NCBI GenBank assembly: GCA_964630185.1
Contig: CAZVTQ010000003.1
Location: forward strand, 109,175-173,174
From: an uncultured Candidatus Saccharibacteria bacterium
GTDB lineage: Bacteria; Patescibacteriota; Saccharimonadia; Saccharimonadales; Saccharimonadaceae
Length of the DNA: 64,000 nt
Reading direction: 5' to 3'
The position numbers and the translations under genes were made by a program. Shown here one piece after another: positions 27,828-60,900 of the stretch (position 1 is the stretch's first letter; every line of letters begins with the position of its first letter). The notes under the pieces were generated by a model. It searched no databases, was not told the DNA's origin, and saw only the letters and a list, made by a program, of their open reading frames with translations.

Positions 27828-27905
27828 TGGTGATCCCACGGGGAATCGAACCCCGATTTCCAGGATGAGAACCTGGTGTCCTAAACCGTTAGACGATGGG
27901 ACCAC
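27828..27905 (-). tRNA. tRNA-Glu (anticodon CUC), CCA encoded
   Basis: GTGGTCCCATCGTCTAACGGTTTAGGACACCAGGTTCTCATCCTGGAAATCGGGGTTCGATTCCCCGTGGGATCACCA. Cloverleaf checked by hand: 7-bp acceptor stem, anticodon loop TTCTCAT, T-loop TTCGATT. Confidence 0.9.
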
Positions 27906-33002: not shown

Positions 33003-33215
33003 GATTACTCCTTTGTCGATGTGTAGGTGCAAAACTTTCTCTCGAAAGATTAAGTATATTTATAGCACTAATATGCTAATAAATCAACTTTATATCGTAC
33101 AGTTGTAACTTCTTATAGGGATTTATATATGCCCATCATATAAACACCTACAAGGTTAGCGAGACCGAGACTTTTTTACGAGTCTCGGTCTCATGTGAGC
33201 CATCCAGGCTCGCTA

Positions 33216-33512
33216 CTAACAACTGAAAGGGGACGTTTGATCAACACTCCTTCCAAGAGCATCGTCATGTGAATCGCCTGCCTTGCGGTAGCCGATGTAG
33301 AGATCAATGAGTCTCAAGTACTCATCTCTACAGTCGTCTTCTGCGAATTGGTCGTAGTCCGCGACGACCTCATCAACCTGTGTTTGAGTTATGGACGGAA
33401 CGTTTTTTCGCAGAACATCCTCTTGCTCTCCCTTGCCCGTGAAGTCAAGCTGATTTAGCGTTAAGATTGAAACCAGGCAAAAAACAGTAATCACCAACAA
33501 CCTCATATTCAC
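33216..33512 (-). CDS. Hypothetical small secreted protein
   Basis: Signal-like MNMRLLVITVFCLVSILTL. 98 aa. Confidence 0.45.
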   Translation of the reverse strand: MNMRLLVITVFCLVSILTLNQLDFTGKGEQEDVLRKNVPSITQTQVDEVVADYDQFAEDDCRDEYLRLIDLYIGYRKAGDSHDDALGRSVDQTSPFSC

Positions 33513-33687
33513 CCACTGTGTAGTTGTTTTTTGAAGTAGCTTGTTCCAATATAATCAGAACTTAAAAATATTATACAATGAAAATAATTATTACACAATT
33601 TTATATCGTACCAGACGAGTCGATATTTCGACTATTCTGGTACGAGGACAGAGGAGCTGGAGGCTCCGCGAGGCCTCGTAGCTAGAC

Positions 33688-40341: not shown

Positions 40342-40429
40342 GCCGCGGTGGTGGAATTTGGTAGACACGCTAGACTCAAAATCTGGTGAGCATTAGCTCG
40401 TGCCGGTTCAAGTCCGGCCCGCGGTACCA
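40342..40429 (+). tRNA. tRNA-Leu (anticodon CAA), type II with long variable arm, CCA encoded
   Basis: GCCGCGGTGGTGGAATTTGGTAGACACGCTAGACTCAAAATCTGGTGAGCATTAGCTCGTGCCGGTTCAAGTCCGGCCCGCGGTACCA. Acceptor stem, anticodon loop CTCAAAA and T-arm GCCGG/CCGGC checked by hand. Confidence 0.9.
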
Positions 40430-44981: not shown

Positions 44982-44991
44982 AATGAAAACG

Positions 44992-45022
44992 CCCCGTGTA
45001 AAAACACGGGGACTTGAGTTTT
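44992..45022. terminator. Hairpin terminator after tsaC
   Basis: CCCCGTGT-AAAA-ACACGGGG, with T-rich sequence on both sides. Confidence 0.6.
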
Positions 45023-45024
45023 GC

Positions 45025-45227
45025 GGCGATGCCGCCTTGTCACAGGGACCATTGGGTAACTCGTAGATCGTAGGGTGTCTAGGGCCTAGGCCAGTGAAGG
45101 ATATCTTCTTATTGACTCTTACGATGAACGCAATCACGTTTATGGTGTGATCCAAGGCGGCATTTTCGCCACTGCAGTGGTAGGACACTCAGGTTTGCAA
45201 CGCAGATAACCTGAGGGTGTCTCTTTT
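45025..45227 (+). ncRNA. Candidate sRNA of about 200 nt (rod-like closing stem plus strong terminator), identity unknown
   Basis: GGCGATGCCGCCTTG (45025-45039) pairs with CAAGGCGGCATTTTCGCC (45153-45170). The CCACTGCAGTGG hairpin follows. GGACACTCAGGTT-(12 nt)-AACCTGAGGGTGTC is followed by TCTTTT. The overlapping 80-aa minus-strand ORF has no support. Confidence 0.4.
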
Positions 45228-45486
45228 GGCATTTTTTATGAGGCCAGCTGAGACGCTGCATATTTTAGACGCGGACGGCTGTGAGGAGCTGTTTTCTATT
45301 CGTGTGATGAGCATGAAAACAGTTAGCTCTTCTTTGCTTGTCGTTGTCTTTACCTTTTGAAGGACATGCCGAAGTGATCAAATGAACACCTCAACAATAA
45401 AGCCTATACTACTCTTTAGTCTTGTAAGTGTCAAGGATTATTATCTACAAAATCAAAATAGACTACATCCAAACCACAACATATAA

Positions 45487-45515
45487 TTGACTTTTCTCTG
45501 TAAAATAGGTATTAT
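45487..45515 (+). promoter_or_regulatory. Candidate promoter TTGACT-N17-TATTAT upstream of the ParB-like gene
   Basis: The -35 is at 45487-45492 and the -10 at 45510-45515. This implies a hairpin-rich leader of about 165 nt before the ATG at 45687. Confidence 0.45.
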
Positions 45516-45686
45516 AATTATTAATTCTCTTCTTGAGAGTATTCCTGTGTATACAGGTGGTTCGTACGCTCAAGAGCATACACGAATAACGAGTTTTTGG
45601 TCCTCTAAAACCAATGTTCATTAACAAACGGGTTGCTACAGCTTGCTAAGCAAGCAATGCATACCCCTTGTCAAAAGGAGCCAGAA

Positions 45687-49684: not shown

Positions 49685-50758
49685 TTACTTTTTCAAACCG
49701 TTTTTGTGTAGCTTCTTCATAGTTTTTAGAAGTTCTTGGGCGGATTTTTTCCAAGTGAATTTGCCAGCTTGCGCCTTGCCTTTTTTGGTCATTTGCGCGC
49801 GTATAGTCTTTTTTTCGAGCTTTCGCACTTGTTTTGCAAAGTCTTTTGGTGAGTCAGGGTCAAAGAATAATCCGGCGTCCCCTGCTACTTCATGGAAAAT
49901 CTCTATGTCGCTACATATAACTGGTACACTTACGCTCATAGCCTCAATGATAGGCAGGCCAAAGCCTTCTTCTTTGCTCGCTGTTACGAGTGCGTGAGCG
50001 CTCCCCAGTATCTCAGCATATTCTTTGTCACTCACACCGCCAAAAAACTCTACTCGAGCGTCTTTGCCGGCTAGTTCTACAAGTTCTTTTTCGCGCCGCG
50101 GGTTTATGCTTGAGAGTAAAAGTAAGTCATATCCAGGCAAATACTCAAGCGAGGCAATGAGTGTCTCAACGTTTTTATATGGCATGAAAGACCCCATATA
50201 GACTAATTTTTTTGCTGGTTTCTTTAGCTTGACCTTAAGTGGACTAGGCGCATTGTAGGCAACCGTAATCGGTTTTTTGGTTATATTGTGGTGCTGGATA
50301 TATTTTTTGGAAGTGTGACTCACAGTTGCTATAGCATCTGCTTGGTTGAGTAGAGTCCGTTGTGGCCAATAAGAAATATGGAATAAACGCCAGACAACGC
50401 GCACTGGCCAAATTAAAAATGTCGGTGGCTTTGGATGTCGATAGTAAATCAAGTCTTGCAGAGTAAGTATTAGTTTGTATTTCCTTCCCCATATACCCAT
50501 ATACTGCAAAGGGCTAAAAACGATATCAGCCCCTAGCTCGTTAAGTTTTCGTGCGAGTAATAGTTCTCGTGGTGAGATCGGATTGTTTACTATGACGTAC
50601 GGTATTTTTTTGGGTAGAAAAGCCAGTTGCTTTTCGTCGTGTATGAGCACTGTGATTGGGTGAATTTTGTGCAAAGCCCCAAGTAAGCTCGAGCCGTAGC
50701 GGCTAATGCCATCGTGAAATTCAGTTTGGGTCCAGCGTGCGTCTACAAAAATCTTCAT
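49685..50758 (-). CDS. GT-B glycosyltransferase (GT4/GT1-like)
   Basis: C-terminal EEGFGLPIIEAMSVSVPVICSD (E-x7-E region). Confidence 0.8.
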   Translation of the reverse strand: MKIFVDARWTQTEFHDGISRYGSSLLGALHKIHPITVLIHDEKQLAFLPKKIPYVIVNNPISPRELLLARKLNELGADIVFSPLQYMGIWGRKYKLILTLQDLIYYRHPKPPTFLIWPVRVVWRLFHISYWPQRTLLNQADAIATVSHTSKKYIQHHNITKKPITVAYNAPSPLKVKLKKPAKKLVYMGSFMPYKNVETLIASLEYLPGYDLLLLSSINPRREKELVELAGKDARVEFFGGVSDKEYAEILGSAHALVTASKEEGFGLPIIEAMSVSVPVICSDIEIFHEVAGDAGLFFDPDSPKDFAKQVRKLEKKTIRAQMTKKGKAQAGKFTWKKSAQELLKTMKKLHKNGLKK

Positions 50759-51105
50759 GGCTTTTTGTTAGTTTTTTCAGAAGATTCTTTTCTTTGCAAA
50801 TATATACAATAACCAGCGAGAGCAACGAGCCAAATTACTTGAGATAGCACAAAAAGTCCTACTGTGGAGTCTAATTGTGGCCAGAGATGATCGAGAGCGA
50901 TAATTCTAAATAAATTTCCCTCTTGGAAATCTTTGAAGAGCATAAGGGTGTATGAAATAAACAGATGTATGCTGGCAAAAGTAAGCACTGTATATTTGAG
51001 GGCTTGCAGAAGTATACGTCTGTTGGGCATAGAAAAAGTATAACACTTTGTTCTGCTATAATTAACCCTAGTATTATGCGTATTGTAATAGCAAATGATC
51101 AGCAC
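50755..51105 (-). CDS. Hypothetical 3-TM membrane protein
   Basis: Hydrophobic 116-aa ORF with a 4-nt overlap with the downstream GT gene. The start is uncertain. Confidence 0.4.
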   Translation of the reverse strand: MLIICYYNTHNTRVNYSRTKCYTFSMPNRRILLQALKYTVLTFASIHLFISYTLMLFKDFQEGNLFRIIALDHLWPQLDSTVGLFVLSQVIWLVALAGYCIYLQRKESSEKTNKKP

Positions 51106-52251
51106 TGGCCTATGGTGAGCGGTGTCGCTACTGCCGCTCGTACGTTAGCGCTCGGACTTACTCGTGCTGGGCACGATGTATTGGTTATTGCCCCGTCTCA
51201 AACTGGCGGACGCTATGAGGAGCAGGATGAGGGCTACCAGATTGTTCGTACCCGCTCTGTACGCTTCCCTTTTCGACAGAACTTGCGTATTTCGGTGGTA
51301 TTGGAACGCGAGGTTCGTAGTATTTTGAAAGAATTTCAACCAGATATTGTTCATGTTCACACTCAGCTAGGAGTTGGGCTGGCTACTATTACTAGCGCTG
51401 GCAAGCTTTCTATTCCAGTTGTAGCAACAAACCACGTGATGCCGGAAAATATTATTAAAAACGTACGTATCATCACTCCACTAGCGAAGCCTGTTAGTAG
51501 TATTTTTACTCGTTACGGCATGCTTCTTTATAAGGGTGCAAGTTGCATCATCATGCCAACGCAGTCTGCGATTGATCTATTCAAAAATGCATCGGTAGAT
51601 GTGCCGATTGTACCAATCTCGAACGGTATTGATTTGAGCCACTTTCGTCCACTTGCTGCCAAAAAAAGTACATATGTAACCTTTCAGCTCCCTGTTGATA
51701 GGCCAATTGTGAGCTATGTGGGCAGGCTTGACCGTGAGAAGCATGTACATATATTGCTACATGCCGCTAAGTCCGTTTTAAAAGAACATAAAGCACATTT
51801 TCTGATTGTTGGCGACGGCAATGCTACGGAAAGTCTTGAGGACTTTGCGCAAGCGCTTGGTATAGCCGATTCAGTTACTTTTACGGGTCGAGTGAGCGAT
51901 GATGATTTGTTACAGTTACATCGTATAGGCGATATTTTTGTTATGCCCTCACCTGCCGAGCTTCAGAGTCTTGCGCTACTGGAATCTATGGCGTCGGGCA
52001 AACCAGCCATCGCCGTTTCAGCTGGGGCATTGCCGGAATTATGCCAGGATGGGCGCAACGGTTTTATAGTACCCGTAGACAATGTCAGAATAATGTCCGA
52101 GAGAATATCGCGGCTACTTGGTGATGAAAAGCTTCGTAAAAAATTCAGTAGCGAGAGTCTCAAGATTGCCAGGGCGCACGATATCAAAAACGTTATCAAA
52201 CGATTTGAAGATATATACAAAGAAGTTATTTCTACTTATTCAAAAAACTAA
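51076..52251 (+). CDS. GT4-family glycosyltransferase
   Basis: Start set at the ATG at 51076 (MRIVIANDQHWPMVSGVA). C-terminal PSPAELQSLALLESMASGKPAIA. Confidence 0.85.
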   Translation: MRIVIANDQHWPMVSGVATAARTLALGLTRAGHDVLVIAPSQTGGRYEEQDEGYQIVRTRSVRFPFRQNLRISVVLEREVRSILKEFQPDIVHVHTQLGVGLATITSAGKLSIPVVATNHVMPENIIKNVRIITPLAKPVSSIFTRYGMLLYKGASCIIMPTQSAIDLFKNASVDVPIVPISNGIDLSHFRPLAAKKSTYVTFQLPVDRPIVSYVGRLDREKHVHILLHAAKSVLKEHKAHFLIVGDGNATESLEDFAQALGIADSVTFTGRVSDDDLLQLHRIGDIFVMPSPAELQSLALLESMASGKPAIAVSAGALPELCQDGRNGFIVPVDNVRIMSERISRLLGDEKLRKKFSSESLKIARAHDIKNVIKRFEDIYKEVISTYSKN

Positions 52252-53104
52252 GAATTGAGCCAGCAATAGCTTCAGGCTCTTCATAGTGCGACAAATGCCC
52301 AGCGTCGGCTAGCTCTACCAACTGCGCTTGTCGAAATGCTTGGACGGCTTTTTTTTGCTGAATTATTGGACATTGTCCGTCTTTATCACCCCCGACAATA
52401 AGCACTTCTTTTGTAATTTTACTCGCCTCTTTGACTACACCTGATCGGTTAGTTTCGCGAAATAAACGATAGGTTTGCTTTGGATTTTGAACATATTTTG
52501 TGTTTTCAATGTGCTGGTCTATGATTTCATTTCTTAAGTCTTTGTCTGAAGTCGTTAACATATGTTTTGTTATCGTTTTTGTAACAAAATGGCTTTTAAG
52601 TACCTTTTTGCCAACAGGTCCAGGGGTTGCTCCAACCCAAAAGTACATCTGACTTATTAATTTACCTATGTAGCGTGCGTCGGGAAAACTAATTGGTGTT
52701 GCAACCGGACTTACTAATATAGTTTTTTTGTCACTTATACCAGGGTTGATTGTATGTAGCCTTGCTACAACGAGTGAACCGTATGAGTGGCCAAGTACCG
52801 TTGGTGGATTTTTTAATTGAAGTTTTTGTATTAAACCTGCTAGGACTTCGGCGTGGTATTGGATAGTCATTTTTTGCTTGCCAATTTCTGAAAGTCCAAA
52901 GCCTGGTAAATCGAGGGTTATCACCGTGAAGTAATTTGTAAGAAACGGTACAATCTTGTAAAAGCCACGGTGGTCGCCTGTAAAACCATGCACAAGAATA
53001 ATAACTGGTTGCTCTAGGCTACCATGCTGCCAGTAGTGAAGTTCGTTCCCCAGTATTTTCAGGGTTTTGTGTTCTGCGCTCAATGTCATGTCTACAGTAT
53101 ACAA
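52232..53104 (-). CDS. Alpha/beta-fold hydrolase
   Basis: HGFTGDHRGF and nucleophile elbow GHSYGS, with a C-terminal GHLSH. Confidence 0.75.
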   Translation of the reverse strand: MYTVDMTLSAEHKTLKILGNELHYWQHGSLEQPVIILVHGFTGDHRGFYKIVPFLTNYFTVITLDLPGFGLSEIGKQKMTIQYHAEVLAGLIQKLQLKNPPTVLGHSYGSLVVARLHTINPGISDKKTILVSPVATPISFPDARYIGKLISQMYFWVGATPGPVGKKVLKSHFVTKTITKHMLTTSDKDLRNEIIDQHIENTKYVQNPKQTYRLFRETNRSGVVKEASKITKEVLIVGGDKDGQCPIIQQKKAVQAFRQAQLVELADAGHLSHYEEPEAIAGSILSFLNK

Positions 53105-53131
53105 GCTGTTATAATAGATAGGATACTAACT

Positions 53132-54175
53132 ATGAAAAAAATACTTATAAATATGATCAGTGAAAGTGAAATTTCAGTTCGTGGTCACGGTGTTCACACT
53201 GCTTACTTAGAGCTTGCTAAAGCTTTGAAGGCACGTGATGATTGTGACGTTGTAGTGAATGAGTTTACACAAAATGTTCATGCTGATATTACCCACATTC
53301 ATACTATCGGACTACTTTCGCTGTCCAAGCTTCTCTTTGGTAAAGGAAAGAAAGTTATTTCTGCTCATGTTGTACCCGACTCTCTTGTAGGTTCAATTGC
53401 TTTAGCGAGCGTGTGGCTACCTCTTGCAAAAGCATATATGAAATTCTTTTATCGTCGCGGGGATAAAGTTTTGGCTGTTTCTAGTATGGTTGCTGATATT
53501 TTGCAAAACGACCTAGGGGTTGCAAAGGAAAAGATTGAAATTACCCACAATACTATTGATACATCTCAGTACAAAACTACTGAAGCAGATAAAAAAGCTT
53601 CACGAAAGAAACTCAATATTTTTGATGGTACATTTGTGGTAGCAGGTAACGGCCAAATCCAACCACGTAAACGTTTTGATAGCTTTGTTGAAATGGCCGA
53701 AAGCTTACCAGATATCAGTTTCATCTGGATAGGCGGAATTCCTTTTAAAAATATCGGGGCCGACTACAAAAAAATGCAGAAATTGATAGAAGAAACACCG
53801 AAGAATCTACTCGTTACCGGTGTTATTGAGCTTGAGGATGTAAAATCATATCTACAAGCATCCGACGTGTTTGTTCTGCCTGCTGAACAGGAAAATCACC
53901 CAATGGCTGTTATAGAAGCTGCAGCTGCAGGTTTGCCTATTGTACTGCGTGATATTCCAGAATATGACGATACTTTCGGTAACGATATTGTCAGGTGTAA
54001 AACTCAGAACGATTTTGTAAAAGCAGTACAAAACTTACGCGCAGACGACTCAATGTATAACAAATTTGTATCAGCTTCAAAAAAAATTGCACAAAGATTT
54101 GACTCCAGCGCTGGTGCAAGTCAAGCGATGGGCATATATAAAACACTTCTGAAAAATGAAGGAATTACTTCATGA
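53132..54175 (+). CDS. GT-B glycosyltransferase
   Basis: Start set at the ATG at 53132. PAEQENHPMAVIEAAAAGLPIVLRD. Confidence 0.75.
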   Translation: MKKILINMISESEISVRGHGVHTAYLELAKALKARDDCDVVVNEFTQNVHADITHIHTIGLLSLSKLLFGKGKKVISAHVVPDSLVGSIALASVWLPLAKAYMKFFYRRGDKVLAVSSMVADILQNDLGVAKEKIEITHNTIDTSQYKTTEADKKASRKKLNIFDGTFVVAGNGQIQPRKRFDSFVEMAESLPDISFIWIGGIPFKNIGADYKKMQKLIEETPKNLLVTGVIELEDVKSYLQASDVFVLPAEQENHPMAVIEAAAAGLPIVLRDIPEYDDTFGNDIVRCKTQNDFVKAVQNLRADDSMYNKFVSASKKIAQRFDSSAGASQAMGIYKTLLKNEGITS

Positions 54176-55533
54176 GAATAGGTCTTTTCACTGATACGTA
54201 TAGACCGTCGATAAACGGTATTGTATATGTTATTGATATAACCAAAAAACACCTTGAAGATCTCGGACATGAAGTATATGTGTTTTGTCCTGCAGACGGT
54301 GTTACTGCTACTAAAGTACGTGAAGATGAAGAGTATGGCATTATACGTTTTCCTAGCGTAAAGGGTGCTTTTTATGATGACTACAACTTTTCGTTTTTCT
54401 TCCCACCATGGAGTCTGCGTAAAATACGAGAACTTGACCTTGATGTCATACATATTTTCACCCCAGGTCAGATAGGAATACTTGGCATTAATGCGGCGTA
54501 CAAGACAGGCGTTCCGCTCGTCACTCAACATAGCACAGACATATACGAATATGTACGGCATTACCCTATGGTTTTACCTGGCCTCTTAATGCTTGTTCCT
54601 CTCACTCCATTTGCCACCAAATTTCACGGACGTGATATCAAGGAGCTCATCAAACTCTATATCCCCCGCCCTGGTGTGACGAAGTGGAATCAAGACATCA
54701 TAGAAGCAATGATAACTATTGTGTATAGTCGTTGCGATAAGGTTATAGCTCTTTCTCAAAAAAGCAAAAATCAACTAGAAAGCTGGATGGATGGCGAGGA
54801 GTATTCGTACCCTATAGATGTACTGCCAACTGGTATCGATGCCTTGCCTGAAGCTACTGAAGAATCACTCAAAACTTTTCGTTCGAAGTACGGCTTTGAT
54901 GAAGATGATGAAATAGTCACCTACGTAGGTAGGCTTGGAGCAGAAAAAAATCTTGCAAGTCTTATACCAATGATTGAGGAAGTTTTGGAGTCGCGTCCGA
55001 AAGCTAAGCTTTTGTATGTTGGTGATTTTGAATACAAAGCTGCACTTGAACAGCTTGCTAGCAAATCATCTGCTAGTGAAAGAATTGTATTTACAGGAGC
55101 GTTACCTCGGGAAAGTTTAGGAACAGTGTATGGGGCTACATCAGTGTTCGTATTCCCTTCTCTGACTGACACTCAAGGATTAGTCATACATGAAGCAGCT
55201 TTGGCTGGCTGTCCTATAGTGTTGATTGATAAAGGGGTAAGTGAAGTTGTTGAAGACGGCGTGAATGGGTACATTGCAGACTCTTCAGAGGATATGGCTA
55301 GTAAAGTCGTTCCAATACTTTCTGATAAAAAGTTACGTCAAACATTTGGGCAAGCCAGTAAAAAGCTCGCTGGTCGCTATACAGAAGTAAAACAGACGAA
55401 AAAACTAGAAACTCTTTATATCGATGCAATAGCTTCGCATACCGAAAAACGTCGTACATCTATGCAAAAAATTTATAAGCACATACTTGTCATGCGTCGA
55501 AAAATAGCAAAGCGCATTAGTACTGATTTATAA
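54172..55533 (+). CDS. GT4-family glycosyltransferase
   Basis: MRIGLFTDTYRPSINGIV and FPSLTDTQGLVIHEAALAGCPIV. 4-nt overlap with the upstream GT gene. Confidence 0.85.
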   Translation: MRIGLFTDTYRPSINGIVYVIDITKKHLEDLGHEVYVFCPADGVTATKVREDEEYGIIRFPSVKGAFYDDYNFSFFFPPWSLRKIRELDLDVIHIFTPGQIGILGINAAYKTGVPLVTQHSTDIYEYVRHYPMVLPGLLMLVPLTPFATKFHGRDIKELIKLYIPRPGVTKWNQDIIEAMITIVYSRCDKVIALSQKSKNQLESWMDGEEYSYPIDVLPTGIDALPEATEESLKTFRSKYGFDEDDEIVTYVGRLGAEKNLASLIPMIEEVLESRPKAKLLYVGDFEYKAALEQLASKSSASERIVFTGALPRESLGTVYGATSVFVFPSLTDTQGLVIHEAALAGCPIVLIDKGVSEVVEDGVNGYIADSSEDMASKVVPILSDKKLRQTFGQASKKLAGRYTEVKQTKKLETLYIDAIASHTEKRRTSMQKIYKHILVMRRKIAKRISTDL

Positions 55534-55539
55534 AAGGTC

Positions 55540-56008
55540 AAAAAAATAACCCCGAAAACCGAGCGAACACAACACCTGATGTGGTGTCGACGGCCGGTTA
55601 GGCTATCGCAACTTTCTCGTGACGCGAGTCAAGAAAGTTGTGTGCTGGGGTAGAATTGCCTTAACAACTCACCCCTTCACTTGGTTTTCGGGGGGCGCTA
55701 GGAGCGCACAGGACACACAGTTAAGTGTCGATTGTTGACTTTTCGTGGTACGCGGAGTGCCACGGAGCCGCACGAAGCTTGCCGGTGCTTCGCTTGCTTA
55801 CAAAACGGTCACACGGATAACCGCCGTCAACGTAAGTCTACTGTATCTATCCTGCAACCTTCCCCGGATCATGGGAGATTACTGGACAGGCTTTAAAGAA
55901 CTACTCGCTCCACGGCCGCCTACGAAAGTGTCGTGGAGCGAGCTTTGGATCACATGCCAACTACCCAACAAAACGAGATAAATACCTGGAATGATACTCA
56001 CCTCGGAT
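55540..56008 (-). ncRNA. Candidate large structured ncRNA A (about 470 nt); strand assignment tentative
   Basis: No ORF above 78 aa, and 37/60 GC in line 55741-55800. On the minus strand a TTGTTT-N17-TATTAT promoter (56044..56016) lies upstream. The 3' end is a 145-nt domain closed by CCCCGAAAACCGAG/CTTGGTTTTCGGGG, followed by a U-run. It shares a 3' module with RNA B. Confidence 0.5.
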
Positions 56009-56044
56009 CGGCACAATAATACCATATGCTACTATTTTAAACAA

Positions 56045-56616
56045 GAAAAAACCCGGAGATGCCGGATGAGGAGAGATCGCATGCGTAGTAGCGATCAGCA
56101 TTCCTCATCCGGACATTCCGGGCGATGTAGTGCTCCGTGTAACGGGAGCGAGTGACACCCAGCAGTGTCGATTGTTAACTACCCGAGTACTTTTGGAGTT
56201 TTTAGCTCCGTGTAAGCCTCGGTCTACTTAGGTCAGATCATTGGACGCATCGGAGTACGTACGTCCTACTTGCTTAGTAGCTTGTTTCTCACGGTCGGGT
56301 ACTGTTGTAACAATACCGAACCGTTAGTCAACTCAAGATTTGCTGTGCCCCGTCGGCTTTACCGAGTCCGACGGAATCTTTTTTAAGGTGTCCCGCTCCA
56401 CGATCGCTACAGATGACTGTAACGCCGTCCATGACCTGGTGGGTCACCGAATGAGAGACTGCCCTTTTGGGGCTATCATGGAGCGGGCTCTGTACTACGG
56501 ACTGCGATGTTGCATCACCACTCCGCTGGGCGGAGCCTAGGCAGTTGCCGTAGTGCGTGCCGTTCTCGCTTGCTCGATATGTACAACTAGAGAGTGAAAA
56601 TGCCTCCCACTTCTCT
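56045..56616 (-). ncRNA. Candidate large structured ncRNA B (about 570 nt); strand assignment tentative
   Basis: Nested long-range stems: CCCGCTCCA/TGGAGCGGG, CTACGG/CCGTAG, CTCCGC/GCGGAG, TACCCGA/TCGGGTA. The 3' end on the minus strand is CCGGATGAGGA/TCCTCATCCGG inside CCCGGA/TCCGGG, followed by UUUUUU. A possible TGnTAGTAT promoter at 56623-56652 overlaps the nrdB terminator. Confidence 0.5.
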
Positions 56617-56632
56617 TACACCATACTATCAC

Positions 56633-56663
56633 AAAAAAACCAGCCTAATCAAGACTGGTTTTT
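56633..56663. terminator. Bidirectional hairpin terminator downstream of nrdB
   Basis: AAAAAAACCAG-(11 nt)-CTGGTTTTT. Confidence 0.6.
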
Positions 56664-56679
56664 ATGGTGGGTAATTTAC

Positions 56680-57678
56680 TTACTTTTTAGTGCTACCAGC
56701 GTTGACTTCGTAGCTAGTATTTGTGCTTTCAAAGAAGTTTACGAGCTCGAGAGTGTCATTAGCTGCGGCCATCCATTTAGCTGGGTTGCTTACTTTGTAG
56801 TGTGCACCAAAGCCAAGTTCTTCGAGGCGGCGATCAGCAAGATATTTGACGTATTGGTTGATGTAGTCAGCATTGAGGCCTAAAATACCGTTTGGCAAAA
56901 GATCTTTGTTGTACTGCTCTTCCATCTCAACGCCGTCGAGGATCATTTGCTTGATCTCGGCTGCAAACTCTTCAGTTTGAAGGTCTGGGTTTTCGTCTAG
57001 AACTGTCAAAATAAGGTTTATACCAAACTTGAGGTGAAGACTTTCGTCACGAACTACCCAGTCAATGAGACTACCGAAGTTACGGAGTAGGTTTCGTTGA
57101 CGGAAGCTCAGTGCAACCATGAAGCCACTGTAGAACCAGAGGCCCTCAAGGATGATGTTGTAGGCTACGAGGTTTCGTACGAAATCCTTCTTACCTTCAG
57201 TGGTTGTGATGTCGATTTGTTCCTCAGTCATACGCTTAATGTATTTGACCTCGAACTCTTCTTTTGCAGCCATAGATGGAATGTTGATGTGTGCGTCGTA
57301 AGAACCTTCGCGGTCAACTGGGAATGTCTCAAGAACGTATTCAAAAGACATACAGTGGTTGGCTTCTTCCCACATTTGTTTTGCAAGATACATGTGTGCT
57401 TCTGGCGCATTGATGTAGGGGTATACACCGAAGGCTAGAGCTTTGTTTACTAGTAACTCGTTTGGGTTGAAATAACTCATTAGGAATGTGACTGCGTGTT
57501 TTTCTTCATCACTCATTTTGCGCCAATCGGCGACGTCTTGTCCTAGTTGGATTTCGTTTGGAAACCAAGTATTTGCAACTGCTTGTTCGTATAGGTCATA
57601 TGCCCATTGGTAACGAACTGGCTTGAGTCGCAGTCCATCTTGGATACCTGTTCCTAGTATGCCTTTTGTTTTTGTCAT
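56680..57678 (-). CDS. nrdB: Class I ribonucleotide reductase beta subunit with class Ic-like residues
   Basis: Ferritin-like di-metal motifs: NPNE(L), WEEANH, ILEGLWFYSGF, RDESLH. The residue at His+4 of the first ExxH is Phe (HCMSF), where the radical Tyr normally sits. Confidence 0.9.
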   Translation of the reverse strand: MTKTKGILGTGIQDGLRLKPVRYQWAYDLYEQAVANTWFPNEIQLGQDVADWRKMSDEEKHAVTFLMSYFNPNELLVNKALAFGVYPYINAPEAHMYLAKQMWEEANHCMSFEYVLETFPVDREGSYDAHINIPSMAAKEEFEVKYIKRMTEEQIDITTTEGKKDFVRNLVAYNIILEGLWFYSGFMVALSFRQRNLLRNFGSLIDWVVRDESLHLKFGINLILTVLDENPDLQTEEFAAEIKQMILDGVEMEEQYNKDLLPNGILGLNADYINQYVKYLADRRLEELGFGAHYKVSNPAKWMAAANDTLELVNFFESTNTSYEVNAGSTKK

Positions 57679-57684
57679 AGCAAT

Positions 57685-57864
57685 CTACTCGCAACCGTCG
57701 CAGATAAGACCTTCTTGTGGGTCAACCAATGCGTCCATGTTGATATTTTTTGTTGAAAACGTTTGAGAACCTTGCTTTTGCGCTTCGGCCATCGCTTCTT
57801 GGATGATCTTCATTCGTAGTTCGATTTCTTCTTGTGTTTCTTGTTGTGTATTGTTTGTGCTCAT
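57685..57864 (-). CDS. Small ORF (59 aa) between nrdA and nrdB, ending in CDGCE
   Basis: Not in the ORF track (below 60 aa). ATG at 57864 with GGGGG 9 nt upstream. Translation: MSTNNTQQETQEEIELRMKIIQEAMAEAQKQGSQTFSTKNINMDALVDPQEGLICDGCE. Stop TAG at 57685-57687. Confidence 0.5.
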   Translation of the reverse strand: MSTNNTQQETQEEIELRMKIIQEAMAEAQKQGSQTFSTKNINMDALVDPQEGLICDGCE

Positions 57865-57899: not shown

Positions 57900-60302
57900 T
57901 TATCTTGCTCTGGAGCCAAAGCCAAATCCTGACCCACTTGAGCTAGATTTAGCAATTGCTTCTGACTTATTAACTTTTGTTGTACTCTGCTCGGCCTGAT
58001 GTCGTGGTTTGACGTGTAGGTAGTAAGTAGTCTTGAGACCCTTTTTCCAGGCGCTCGAATAAATACCTACCATGTCGTCAATATCACGTGTCTCTAGATA
58101 CATGTTGCGTGAAATAGCTTGGTCAACCCATTTCTGAGCTCGCCCTGCTACTTCTATAAATGCGTCTGGAGACAACTGGAAACTGGTTTTGTATACATCT
58201 TTAATGTGTTGTGGAACAGCATCGATCTTCGTGAGGTCACCCTGATGTGCGAGGACGTCGTCTTTTACCTCAGTCCAAAGATCAAGTGCTTTCAGGTCGT
58301 TGACCAAGTTGACGTTTACTTCTAGGAACTTACCGTTAAGTGTTGATCGTGAGAAGATTTGTGAAAACTGCGGATCAAGACCTGGAGTTGTGCCTGCAAC
58401 GTGTGCGATGTTTGCTGTCGGTGCAATAGCCATAAGAGTTGCATTTCGCATACCTTTTTTGACTTTTTTGCGTAGTTTTTCCCAGTCGAGACGGGTTGTG
58501 CGGTTGATATCAATACCTACGCCACGGTCGATGCTAGCAAGCTCCACTGTGTCGAGTGGGATTAGTCCCTTGCTCCAGCCAGAGCCTTTGAACATTGGAT
58601 ATGCTCCACGCTCTTTGGCAAGCTCTGCACTTTCGTCGATTGCTTGGTAGCTGATGAACTCTACAAGTTGGTCAATCAAGTCGTATGCTTCTTCAGACTC
58701 GTATGAGTAACCAAGCTTCTCGATAACATCGGTGAATCCCATAACGCCTAGTCCAATAGCACGGTTTTGTTTGTTGGAGTGCATCGCTTCTTTAACTGGT
58801 GTGTTCGTGATGTCCACAAGGTTATCGAGTTGGCGAACAGCCGAACGAGTACTACGCTCAAGTCGCTTCCAGTCGAAGTCTCTTTTGTCGAGCAGTAAGT
58901 GTGCTGAAAGGTTCATGCTGACTAAGTTGCAAACTGCAGTGTTGTCTTTGTCTTGCGGTAATGTGATTTCGGTACATAGGTTTGAAAGATGGATTGTACC
59001 AGTGTTGTTGTTGAGTGCGCGTACGTTGATAGTGTCTTTCCAAGTAAGCCACGGGTGACTTGTTGCTTGGAGTACTATAAGAATTTGACGGAATTGTTCG
59101 CGAGCTTTGATTTTGTCGAATGTACGCATTTCACCTGCTTCAGCTAGTGCAATGTACTCGGCATAGCGTTTAGAAAAGTCGCTACCGTAGAGTTCGCACA
59201 AGTCTGGAGTATCAGCTGGGTCAAATAAGTACCAATCTTCGTCGTTGTCGACTCGTTTCATGAATTCATCTGACATCCATACGGCAGTGTTGGCGGTTCG
59301 CACACGGAGGTACGGGTCACCGGAGTTTTGCTTTAGGTCGAGGAATTGTGGGAAGTTTAGGTGCCAGTTTTCCATGTAGAAAGCCAAGGCGCCGGCTTTT
59401 TTGCCTTTTCGGCTCACAGCACGAAGAGCTGCATCGACAACGTTCATAAATGGAATTGGTCCAGTAGAAACAGTATTTGTACTCTTCACAGGTGAACCTT
59501 CGGCACGAAGCTTGTTCATAGAAAGGCCGATTCCACCGGTACCCTTAGATATCCACATAACGTCGCTGACGGTCTTTGCGATAGAATCCATGTCATCTTG
59601 CGTCTCCATGACAAAACAGTTGCTGAGCTGCGGGAAAGCACCTCCTGCGTTAACTCTTGTTGAGCCACCAGGCACGTAGTCGAAGTTACTCATGCGGTCG
59701 TAGAATTCCAAAGCTGCTGCTGTAGGGTTTTTCTCGTTAAAGCTAAGACCCATAGCAATACGCATCATAGTGTACTGTGGTGTTTCAATCGGTTCGCCGT
59801 CTTGTTTGCGCAAGGCATAACGGTTTTTACTGGTGATAACACCAAGATATTTCATAAGATTGTCTCGGCTTGGGTCGAGTGCTGCAGCTAGTTTTTTGAG
59901 GTCAAATAGCTTGCTGTCGCCCATTCGTTTGTCTAGTAGTTTGTCTTTAACACCTTGACGTATGTAAGGCGCAAAGTTTTTCTGATGAAGTGCTACAAGT
60001 TCTTCATCACTTTCATAGTCACCAAGGACATTCTTGTAAATTGTTTTTAGCAGCAATCGTGCAGCTATGATGTCAAAGTCTGGGTCGTCTTTGACGTTTT
60101 GCAAGGCTGCGTGAATGACTGCTTCATCTAATTGCGTTGTTGTAATGCCGTCGAACAGAGTCAAACTTACCTCTGTAGCAACTTGAATTACTTTTGATAT
60201 TTGATCATCAAGGCCGCGCGTTGCTCTCTCTAGCGCACGGTTGATTTTGTCGGCATTGTAGGCTTGTTTGCTGCCGTCAATTTTTGTGACTTGAATGTCC
60301 AC
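57900..60302 (-). CDS. nrdA: Class I ribonucleotide reductase alpha subunit with an N-terminal ATP-cone
   Basis: ATP-cone (VTKIDGSKQAYNADKINRALE). Catalytic regions SNLCTEI and TTYYL. Start set at the GTG at 60302 (TAGGAGGGTCACCAAAA upstream). The C-terminus is Ser/Gly-rich and has no Cys pair. Confidence 0.9.
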   Translation of the reverse strand: MDIQVTKIDGSKQAYNADKINRALERATRGLDDQISKVIQVATEVSLTLFDGITTTQLDEAVIHAALQNVKDDPDFDIIAARLLLKTIYKNVLGDYESDEELVALHQKNFAPYIRQGVKDKLLDKRMGDSKLFDLKKLAAALDPSRDNLMKYLGVITSKNRYALRKQDGEPIETPQYTMMRIAMGLSFNEKNPTAAALEFYDRMSNFDYVPGGSTRVNAGGAFPQLSNCFVMETQDDMDSIAKTVSDVMWISKGTGGIGLSMNKLRAEGSPVKSTNTVSTGPIPFMNVVDAALRAVSRKGKKAGALAFYMENWHLNFPQFLDLKQNSGDPYLRVRTANTAVWMSDEFMKRVDNDEDWYLFDPADTPDLCELYGSDFSKRYAEYIALAEAGEMRTFDKIKAREQFRQILIVLQATSHPWLTWKDTINVRALNNNTGTIHLSNLCTEITLPQDKDNTAVCNLVSMNLSAHLLLDKRDFDWKRLERSTRSAVRQLDNLVDITNTPVKEAMHSNKQNRAIGLGVMGFTDVIEKLGYSYESEEAYDLIDQLVEFISYQAIDESAELAKERGAYPMFKGSGWSKGLIPLDTVELASIDRGVGIDINRTTRLDWEKLRKKVKKGMRNATLMAIAPTANIAHVAGTTPGLDPQFSQIFSRSTLNGKFLEVNVNLVNDLKALDLWTEVKDDVLAHQGDLTKIDAVPQHIKDVYKTSFQLSPDAFIEVAGRAQKWVDQAISRNMYLETRDIDDMVGIYSSAWKKGLKTTYYLHVKPRHQAEQSTTKVNKSEAIAKSSSSGSGFGFGSRAR

Positions 60303-60471
60303 TTTTGGTGACCCTCCTAATTTTTTTGTATTATGAGCACTTATAAGCAACGAGGAGCCACACCACTCCTTTATGCTCGGTGATCGATGGAAGACATCGT
60401 TCTACACCCCCTGGTGTCTTCGGGCGAGACATAGCTATTTTGGATATACTATATCTAGCGCTTATGTTCCA

Positions 60472-60501
60472 TAGTAATACCCTATATATGCTATTGTCAA
60501 C
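60472..60501 (-). promoter_or_regulatory. Candidate nrdA promoter TTGACA-N18-TACTAT with an overlapping AT palindrome
   Basis: The -35 is at 60501..60496 and the -10 at 60477..60472. The spacer contains CATATATAGGG. A second palindrome GATATACTATATC lies about 35 nt downstream. The leader is about 170 nt. Confidence 0.35.
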
Positions 60502-60553
60502 GGTTTTATGCTTTAGAATTTACAACGATTCTATATCTGTTAGGTGGGTAAAA

Positions 60554-60820
60554 CTAACTGTTTTTAGCCAGTGCGGCATCTATTTTTGGCCGGTCAAAAC
60601 CCACTACAATTTCGCCGTTAATGCTGCTGGTAGGAACACCTTGAAAATTACCGCGACCACCTATAGTTTCCATTAGTTCGTTATACGCTGTCTCGTCTTT
60701 TTCTATGTCTTTTGTGACAAAGGTTACTTTTTTGTGTTCTAAGTATTGCTCTAAGCTATGGCAAAAAGCACACCAGCTTGTACTGTATATAGTTACTTGA
60801 GGCGTTGTACTACTACTCAT
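60554..60820 (-). CDS. Glutaredoxin-fold redoxin (NrdH/Grx-like)
   Basis: VTIYSTSWCAFCHSL (CxxC), GVPTSSINGEIVVGF. Immediately upstream of the RNR genes. Confidence 0.8.
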   Translation of the reverse strand: MSSSTTPQVTIYSTSWCAFCHSLEQYLEHKKVTFVTKDIEKDETAYNELMETIGGRGNFQGVPTSSINGEIVVGFDRPKIDAALAKNS

Positions 60821-60900
60821 AGTTCTAGTATAGCAAATAGTTACCTGTAACGTAAAAGCTCATGCTTGCACGCAGTTTTATAGAGGTCTAGACTAGAGTT

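Follow-up and report, generated by a model that had tools for sequence, protein, structure and literature searches.

Two probable tandem genes for large structured RNAs, paralogues of one family, downstream of nrdB in an uncultured Candidatus Saccharibacteria bacterium

In the 64,000-nucleotide (nt) stretch of DNA from an uncultured Candidatus Saccharibacteria bacterium analysed here (contig CAZVTQ010000003.1, hereafter the window), the 1146-nt gap at 55534-56679, between nrdB and a gene for a GT4 glycosyltransferase, very probably contains two tandem minus-strand genes encoding large structured non-coding RNAs (ncRNAs), which are paralogues of a single family found so far in one clade of Saccharibacteria only. 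The gap is the longest stretch without open reading frames (ORFs) in the window and also the most GC-rich, with 50.7% GC vs 44.9% for the whole window. A preliminary description of this DNA had drawn attention to a motif present twice in the gap, made up of a 15-mer (GTGTCGATTGTTRAC), a GACAC/GTGTC hairpin, a second small hairpin and a closing stem, and had read it as an RNA module. We refer to the two genes as unit A and unit B.

Proposed transcription units and their architecture

On the minus strand both units folded far more stably than shuffled sequences and than the plus strand. The minimum free energy (MFE) was -204.7 kcal/mol (z -7.9) for unit A and -240.4 kcal/mol (z -7.85) for unit B, vs -173.8 kcal/mol (z -4.4) and -224.5 kcal/mol (z -4.8), respectively, for the plus strand. 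The 3'-end of each unit consisted of a stem and a U-run; the T-run followed the long stem on the minus strand only and was picked out by a terminator scan at 56067-56051 and 55563-55551. A promoter consensus, TTGnnn-17/18-TAnnnT, was found at the 5'-end of all 17 units, from 13 loci, that formed the sample for the promoter and covariation analyses. Taken together, the minus-strand folds, the T-run terminators and the promoter before each half indicated two tandem minus-strand genes. Each unit would start from its own σ70-type promoter and end at its own stem and U-run terminator, and we infer the transcript ends and the independent transcription of the units from the promoter and terminator consensus.

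The two RNAs have a common architecture, which comprises, from 5' to 3', (1) a 5' hairpin, (2) a signature stem of 11 bp (CYCRCUCYRYG/CRYRGRGYGRG), into which a segment of variable sequence is inserted, (3) the linker ACCUU-AAA, (4) the central multibranch domain, which GUUGAC/GUYARC closes, (5) a short linking segment, (6) the GACAC/GUGUC hairpin, (7) a small GC hairpin and (8) a terminator domain. The corresponding features of the window were as follows.

56046..56616, minus strand: unit B, structured ncRNA gene of ~570 nt; predicted transcriptional start site (TSS) ~56616, U-run ending at 56046.
56623..56652, minus strand: unit B promoter; -35 TTGATT (56647-56652), 18-nt spacer, -10 TAGTAT (56623-56628).
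56392..56487, minus strand: unit B domain with a three-way junction; the signature stem CCCGCUCCAUG/CGUGGAGCGGG (arms 56477-56487/56392-56402) closes it.
56174..56332, minus strand: unit B central multibranch domain; GUUGAC (56327-56332) pairs with GUUAAC (56174-56179, the RAC end of the 15-mer).
56154..56169, minus strand: unit B GACAC-UGCUGG-GUGUC hairpin; alternatively, UGCUGGGU pairs with GCACAGCA at 56341-56348.
56132..56149, minus strand: unit B small hairpin GCUCCCG-UUACA-CGGAGC, kept in orthologues.
56046..56122, minus strand: unit B terminator; long hairpin 56052-56122, then UUUUUU.
55539..56008, minus strand: unit A, paralogous structured ncRNA gene of ~470 nt; predicted TSS ~56008, U-run ending at 55539.
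56016..56044, minus strand: unit A promoter; -35 TTGTTT (56039-56044), 17-nt spacer, -10 TATTAT (56016-56021).
55904..55942, minus strand: unit A signature stem CUCGCUCCACG/CGUGGAGCGAG (arms 55932-55942/55904-55914), capped by a 17-nt loop.
55734..55831, minus strand: unit A central multibranch domain; GUUGAC (55826-55831) pairs with GUCAAC (55734-55739).
55712..55729, minus strand: unit A GACAC-UUAACUGU-GUGUC hairpin; alternatively, ACUGUGU pairs with AUACAGU at 55840-55846.
55695..55707, minus strand: unit A small hairpin GCGCU-CCU-AGCGC, which separates the terminator domain from the GACAC hairpin.
55539..55693, minus strand: unit A terminator domain; base helix of ~17 bp (55550-55567/55676-55693), three-way junction, then UUAUUUUUUU.

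The -35 hexamer of the unit A promoter lies directly after the U-run of unit B, and this promoter was kept in loci L169 and L175 (TTGTTT-17/18-TATTAT/TACTAT).

Covariation and strand of the RNA

The alignment of unit B with its relatives contained six full-length orthologues and 149 base pairs, with 95.8% of the cells paired, and showed 13 compensatory pairs vs 6.1±1.7 in shuffled alignments and 0-4 in slid controls. For the 3' half of unit A, aligned with three orthologues (69 pairs, 90.7% paired), 12 compensatory pairs were found vs 4.8±1.7 after shuffling, and in the analysis of the signature stem the figures were 10 vs 4.3. None of 500 shuffles reached the observed number in any of these three tests, in which the slid controls gave 0-5.

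The 11-bp signature stem was paired in 12 of 12 units and carried double changes at 5 of its 11 positions (e.g. G-C in six units vs A-U in six), and the inner helices of its three-way junction covaried too. The helix that closes the central domain (alignment pairs 301-306/459-464 in unit B) was 100% paired in the six orthologues of unit B, with U-G and G-U variants; in unit A the same 6 bp were invariant in four orthologues and the hairpins inside the domain covaried. In the small hairpin of unit B, pair 491/504 was U-A in four units and C-G in one (A3 alignment), and the B units of L169 and L188 (L169B and L188B) probably both carry this U-A to C-G change, judging from their printed sequences, in which the hairpin begins with GCCCC and ends with GGGC. 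In the unit B terminator, pairing reached 96.8% in helix 20 and 100% in helix 21, and a compensatory change turned A-U into G-C at the apex; the base helix of the unit A terminator covaried as well (G-C/A-U and C-G/U-A).

A covariance model of the signature domain scored 108-120 bits on the minus strand vs 19-27 bits on the plus strand, i.e. 4-5-fold lower on the opposite strand. In the window, model R1 reached 108 bits at the three-way-junction domain of unit B and 34 bits (E 4e-7) at the signature stem of unit A. Units on which the model of the signature domain had not been trained were recovered in L196 (29.5 bits), L193 (25.2 bits) and, weakly, L199 (15 bits), and the model matched nothing else in the window and none of 28 nrdB loci from other Saccharibacteria. 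The G-U and U-G wobbles, valid on the minus strand only, together with the asymmetry of the model scores, showed that the RNA is read from the minus strand, as the preliminary description had supposed. The gap is thus a conserved, structured and non-coding region made of two paralogous parts: compensatory changes exceed the controls, consensus promoters and terminators are present and no ORF is conserved, as would generally be expected of structured ncRNA genes.

The repeated motif as an internal junction of the RNAs

The sequence at 55680-55739 and 56116-56179 was as previously described. The 15-mer GTGTCGATTGTTRAC occurred only twice in the 64 kb, at 55725-55739 and 56165-56179, even when 2 mismatches were allowed (mean of 0.24 matches in shuffled sequence), and a repeat finder extended it to a 17-mer, AGTGTCGATTGTTRACT, whose copies are spaced by 440 nt. 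By our own calculation, ~8e-4 such 17-mers with at most one mismatch would be common by chance to two unrelated 500-nt stretches. The GACAC arms were located at 55712-55716 and 56154-56158, and both small hairpins paired, GCGCT-AGG-AGCGC at 55695-55707 and GCTCCG-TGTAA-CGGGAGC at 56132-56149. The closing stems exist too, only as arms of longer stems, 55550-55567/55676-55693 and 56052-56072/56102-56122, which belong to the terminators. A second co-linear element shared by the two units, which had escaped notice, was the stem CGCTCCAYG/CRTGGAGCG, localised by a search for repeats and inverted repeats at 55904-55914/55932-55942 and 56392-56402/56477-56487; these are the arms of the signature stem.

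On the RNA strand the 15-mer reads GUYAAC-AAUC-GACAC. Its first part, GUYAAC, is the 3' strand of the 6-bp helix formed with an invariant GUUGAC located 100-170 nt upstream, which closes the central multibranch domain, and varied among orthologues only to GUUAAC and GUCAGC, both of which yield G-U or U-G wobbles valid on the minus strand alone. The linker occurred as AAUC, AAC, AAU, AAUA and AAUU. The 15-mer, described earlier as conserved, is composite and its linker is variable, so that the exact identity of the copies in A and B is partly particular to the lineage of the window. In both units the motif lies just 5' of the terminator domain, as had been stated. What it represents is a junction inside two large RNAs (~470 and ~570 nt) of common architecture, and neither a small autonomous module nor a marker of the 3'-end of a small RNA family, the two readings offered earlier. 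It corresponds to elements 4 (3' strand) to 7 of that architecture, and its repetition follows from the paralogy of the two genes and from constraint on the junction.

Selection on RNA structure, proposed from the difference between the two small hairpins, was borne out by the real compensatory changes of the orthologues. The hairpins themselves do not provide this evidence: they are not alignable between A and B, they differ in length and their base pairs are not homologous. What is conserved is the position, which is occupied by a GCGC/GCGC stem in the A-type units, L192 and L193 and by a GCUCC/GGAGC stem in the B units; the GCGC/GCGC stem recurred with a variable loop of 3-6 nt in L175A, L188A, L194b, L193 and L192. 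The terminator domain of unit A (CCCGAGAAnCGAGUGA...) was likewise found in L175A, L188A, L194b, L183, L193, L196 and L192.

Alternative pairings at the junction

The loop of the GACAC hairpin, together with the first two bases of its 3' arm, is complementary to a conserved AUACAGN just upstream of GUUGAC. The resulting long-range helix is AUACAGU/ACUGUGU in A and RYACAGCR/UGCUGGRU in B, where the position after ACAG is U-A and C-G, respectively. In the window this helix and the hairpin overlap and lie at most 2 kcal/mol apart in both units. The hairpin is part of the MFE structure of unit A (mean pair probability 0.80), in which forcing the long-range helix costs 1.8 kcal/mol; in unit B the MFE structure contains the long-range helix (5 of 7 pairs, mean probability 0.66 vs 0.04 for the hairpin).

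Among the unit B orthologues the long-range helix was paired in 100% of the cells, with one pair occurring as C-G, U-G or U-A; the GACAC hairpin showed no covariation and was broken by C.A in two of six, L181 and L185. The hairpin is thus present as described but is not clearly the native pairing. In the A-type units the second pair of the hairpin was A-U, G-U or G-C, and the hairpin had a single wobble and a single compensatory change, from A-U to G-C, in L194. The unit of L193, which has no central domain, carries a GACACG-CCGA-CGUGUC hairpin alone, with no long-range partner, and in L199 an 8-bp long-range helix coexists with a separate GGACAC/GUGUCC hairpin. An H-type pseudoknot formed by the hairpin and the long-range helix was rejected on steric grounds, the linkers being of 0-1 nt.

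According to these folding models, the junction can adopt two near-isoenergetic pairings. It could be a conformational switch, in which the RNA would alternate between the hairpin and the long-range helix (AUACAGN/NCUGUGU) in response to a ligand, a protein or temperature and so control, for example, whether transcription runs on from unit B into unit A, or how active the RNA is. Comparative support exists for each of the two pairings, they are close in energy and in the window they should not be able to coexist, because the competing strands are joined by 0-1-nt linkers; the separate elements of L199 and the hairpin of L193 without a long-range partner point the same way. Against this, neither pairing overlaps the terminator stems, which leaves the RNA with no evident expression platform, nearest-neighbour predictions for RNAs of such length often yield near-isoenergetic alternatives, part of the complementarity could stem from the GU-repeat sequence (ACUGUGUGUC), and the gene context points to no ligand or partner. 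We regard a switch as rather unlikely and, in any case, as a refinement compatible with two tandem ncRNA genes and not as a replacement for them.

Homologues and distribution

Eleven syntenic loci with one or two units were found through GT4 homologues 73-97% identical to that of the window. Because the GT4 homologues formed a graded series, from 97% to 61% identity, this gene was a better anchor of synteny than nrdB, which, with matches that were all 83-89% identical, is too conserved to single out the nearest relatives. On contigs whose GT4 homologue was 73-94% identical, the arrangement GT4, gap, (YecM), nrdB was kept, with gaps of 433-1196 nt and 49-54% GC. Both unit types were present in L175 and L188, only B in L181 and L185, one unit in L183, L192, L193, L196 and L199, and two in L194. 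In L195 (GT4 64% identical) synteny was lost and no unit was found. The RNA was not found by blastn, nhmmer, fuzzy motif search or covariance model in 80 genome loci anchored on nrdB, and in other Saccharibacteria the gap after nrdB was mostly of 2-340 nt (773 nt, up to the contig end, in L015).

When 241 million metagenome records were scanned with the strict pattern GACAC-N3-14-GTGTCGATTGTTRAC, 10 matches came up, 9 of them due to chance and one real, L169, a relative that is syntenic and, over unit B, 89.5% identical. The 15-mer had 82 matches in IMG/VR, about the chance number by our own estimate; they lay in unrelated sequence without the GACAC hairpin (in L117 there was an arm and no loop).

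Units A and B had no blastn match to each other at E<=1e-4, and MAFFT gave no meaningful register outside the shared islands. Both types were present in three lineages, among them those of L175 and L188, so the duplication is old, in keeping with the earlier opinion that the copies are not recent. By sequence, A and B are old paralogues that share islands only. All 12 lineages had the RNA at the same locus, and the distribution is that of a fixed chromosomal locus, inherited vertically in what is so far one Saccharibacteria (TM7) clade.

A mosaic organisation was observed within the family, at L194 4366-5475 and L188 4348-5543. The 5' half of unit A of L188 and the first unit of L194 resemble the single unit of L183 but diverge from it in their 3' parts; that first unit of L194 ends in an unrelated 3' half and terminator of its own. 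These resemblances suggest that domain shuffling or recombination between tandem copies may have taken place.

Gene setting

The genes next to the RNA units were:

54172-55533, plus strand: GT4 glycosyltransferase gene, one flank of the gap.
56680-57678, minus strand: nrdB, the other flank of the gap.
57900-60350, minus strand: nrdA, beyond nrdB.

The sequence of the gap region was identical to that of a 244-kb Logan contig. The nearest relatives of NrdB among 185,579 species genomes were metagenome-assembled genomes of Candidatus Saccharibacteria/Saccharimonadia, with 84-89% identity. NrdB was comparably close, 83-87% identical, to proteins of Microbacteriaceae and other Actinomycetota (loci L008, L013, L019-L028 and others), which suggests that nrdAB may have been exchanged between these epibiotic Saccharibacteria and the phylum to which their hosts usually belong.

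The terminator hairpin of nrdB lies at 56632-56666 (CCAGTC-TTGATTAG-GCTGG), and its loop holds the -35 hexamer of the unit B promoter. L183, L194 and L196 have a comparable arrangement, with TTGTCA within the loop of the upstream terminator. A YecM-family gene (169 aa) lies between nrdB and the RNA genes in L175 (7472-7981), L181 (6963-7472), L185 (4962-5471) and L188 (5544-6053), and is absent from the window, L169, L183, L193, L194, L196 and L199. Between nrdA and nrdB there is an ORF of 59 aa (57685-57864, minus strand) with no Pfam match; a counterpart of 56-69 aa was called at the matching position in all the syntenic relatives, and this ORF might encode a small protein conserved as part of the nrd operon. 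On the other side, the RNA genes adjoin a cluster (49685-55533) of five GT4-family glycosyltransferase genes and an alpha/beta hydrolase gene, in an order that is kept in the relatives. Further long ORF-free gaps of 550-675 nt were localised at 791-1465, 33033-33687, 44982-45632 and 60351-60900, the last one upstream of nrdA; none of them had raised GC or an Rfam match.

Search for known RNA families

Rfam 15 was searched with models that included OLE, GOLLD, ROOL, HEARO, raiA, 6S, RNase P, tmRNA, SRP, group I and II introns and riboswitches. At gathering thresholds only two tRNAs were found in the whole window; at E<=10 the region 55450-56750 gave only a chance match of 13.7 bits to a snoRNA, and at E<=1 there was nothing in the RNA gaps of six homologous loci. 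ARAGORN found tRNA-Glu (27828-27903) and tRNA-Leu (40342-40429) and no tmRNA in the window. Motifs of group II intron domain 5 or of RNase P P4 were not seen by eye and had no covariance-model match, and both candidates were discarded. Searches of the literature on structured ncRNAs of Saccharibacteria and of the candidate phyla radiation (CPR) brought up no description of such an RNA. A mobile or phage-borne element was rejected, as blastn searches of 50,697 phage and 72,556 plasmid records came back empty, the locus is constant in the 12 lineages and the viral matches of the 15-mer lack the flanking hairpins.

The hairpin proximal to the 5'-end (56586-56613 in the window) carries a Shine-Dalgarno-like GGAGG in its loop in most units, in a context that was invariant in all B units (AGAGAAGUGGGAGG) and was CAAUGGGAGGUUU in the L183-type units. 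No conserved ORF followed this GGAGG; length and frame varied (partly judged by eye). The GGAGG also prompted us to consider a sponge of the CsrB/RsmZ type, which was rejected, as GGA, AGGA and GGAG were not enriched: in 9 loci their counts equalled or fell below those expected from shuffled sequences (z -1.5 to +1.2).

Alternative explanations

We considered whether the region could be a cis-acting 3' untranslated structure of nrdB (or of the GT4 gene on the other strand) that stabilises the mRNA or terminates transcription. The two units are co-directional with nrdAB and immediately downstream of nrdB, and the terminator of unit A abuts the stop codon of the GT4 gene, where it could serve both strands. 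However, nrdB has a terminator hairpin of its own, each unit has a conserved promoter, the YecM gene separates nrdB from the RNA in four relatives, other Saccharibacteria have an nrdB without such a region, and 0.5-1.1 kb of covarying multibranch structure is far beyond what a terminator needs; a cis-acting role is therefore very unlikely. Even less probable is that the gap holds genes for small proteins, or a decaying pseudogene, with incidental structure, an idea to which we give almost no credence. In some assemblies the homologous gaps do carry ORFs of 71-106 aa assigned by gene callers, but these differed between lineages in position, frame and length, their products had no Pfam match and only three relatives among 5.8 billion proteins, and no more than 48 codons are open on the RNA strand in the window. 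In addition, there was no 3-nt periodicity (71/66/85 variable columns by position), many indels shifted the frame, most indels not being multiples of 3, and the compensatory changes exceeded the shuffled controls.

That the repeats are elements of the DNA itself, either a palindromic protein site resembling an NrdR operator or a REP/MITE-like repeat, was judged extremely improbable. The NrdR box is a 16-bp palindrome of fixed length, usually present as two boxes ~31-32 bp apart upstream of nrd promoters. The ACAC...GTGT palindromes beside the nrd genes resemble it, and copy A (ACACACAGTTAAGTGT) matches ~11 of 16 positions of the consensus. The inner spacers are nevertheless of 8 nt in A and 6 nt in B, and 440 bp separate the two sites, which lie downstream of nrdB instead of in tandem upstream; an NrdR box was rejected on account of this spacing. 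The motif is present nowhere else in the window, the strand-asymmetric wobbles and model scores would be unexpected for a DNA site, and the entire 1.1 kb covaries as RNA.

Two tandem genes for structured ncRNAs thus remained our preferred explanation, and several observations weigh against it. The transcript ends are predictions from the promoter and terminator consensus; the 17 units and 13 loci all come from metagenome assemblies, so that few independent lineages underlie the covariation statistics; and the sequences used to test the structures had in part served to derive them. At the junction two pairings compete, and either one of them is native or the junction has two states. No linked protein gene was seen beyond the constant neighbours. 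The family is also rare, the strict scan of metagenome records having brought one real homologue, and a spurious ORF overlapping the RNA, used as a query, retrieved only three clusters among the 5.8 billion proteins, at loci already known.

Discussion

We think it probable, with some reserve, that these RNAs are a new and real class of large (~370-650 nt) ornate ncRNA, belonging to one clade of ultrasmall, host-dependent Saccharibacteria and having a bistable 3' junction. They resemble OLE, ROOL, GOLLD and raiA in kind, being large, ornate and restricted to one lineage, and, by the covariance-model test, are members of none of these families. OLE RNA (RF01071), of ~600 nt, whose function was long unknown, works as a ribonucleoprotein scaffold. 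Like the family described here, it is a large ornate bacterial ncRNA with many conserved helices, confined to one bacterial lineage; in contrast to it, our units had no OLE sequence or structure match and no adjacent oapA-like gene, they are often tandemly duplicated, and their hosts are Saccharibacteria and not Bacillota. ROOL and GOLLD (RF03087, RF01998) are large RNAs reported to self-assemble into multimers. They share with the present family size (500-800 nt), multi-domain structure and patchy distribution, but here there was no covariance-model match, no phage or tRNA-cluster context and no conserved palindromic loop that would suggest kissing-loop assembly. The raiA motif RNA (RF03072) and RNAs of the 6S/Ms1 type are likewise stable, structured, trans-acting, conserved within a phylum and equipped with their own promoter and terminator; they are much smaller (~200-300 nt) and gave no match, and the family has no 6S-like central bubble. 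Finally, both units end as Rho-independent terminators do, in a GC-rich stem followed directly by a U-run. Unlike those, the terminator stem of unit A and of most relatives closes a conserved, covarying three-way junction with an insert of ~110 nt, so it is part of the folded RNA and not a termination signal only.

As for what the RNA does, a possible answer, to which we lean without much confidence, is that it would act in trans as a stable scaffold or as the RNA of a ribonucleoprotein. We infer this from the own promoter and terminator of each gene, from the large, multi-domain, covarying fold, and from the fact that very small genomes retain the genes and repeatedly keep two of them. In several helices conservation extends to the sequence, beyond the needs of pairing, and hints at recognition surfaces; the stems of invariant sequence (CGCUCC.., GUUGAC, GACAC) would then be sites of protein binding or tertiary contact and not mere helices. 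A catalytic (ribozyme) or self-assembling role, in addition to a new class of RNA, seems unlikely.

The family is small and its anatomy is clean, with defined promoters and terminators and a signature stem, and the choice between the hairpin and the long-range helix is a concrete structural question; its narrow distribution limits the wider impact until a function is known. To our knowledge, bacterial RNAs longer than ~400 nt with many covarying helices are rare, and almost all of those understood are ribozymes or cores of ribonucleoprotein machines. Saccharibacteria live on other bacteria and have streamlined genomes, of ~1 Mb in the bacteria that carry this family. The 0.5-1.1 kb that such genomes spend on these RNA genes argues for a useful role, and, by analogy, the RNA family may be the core of an unknown ribonucleoprotein.

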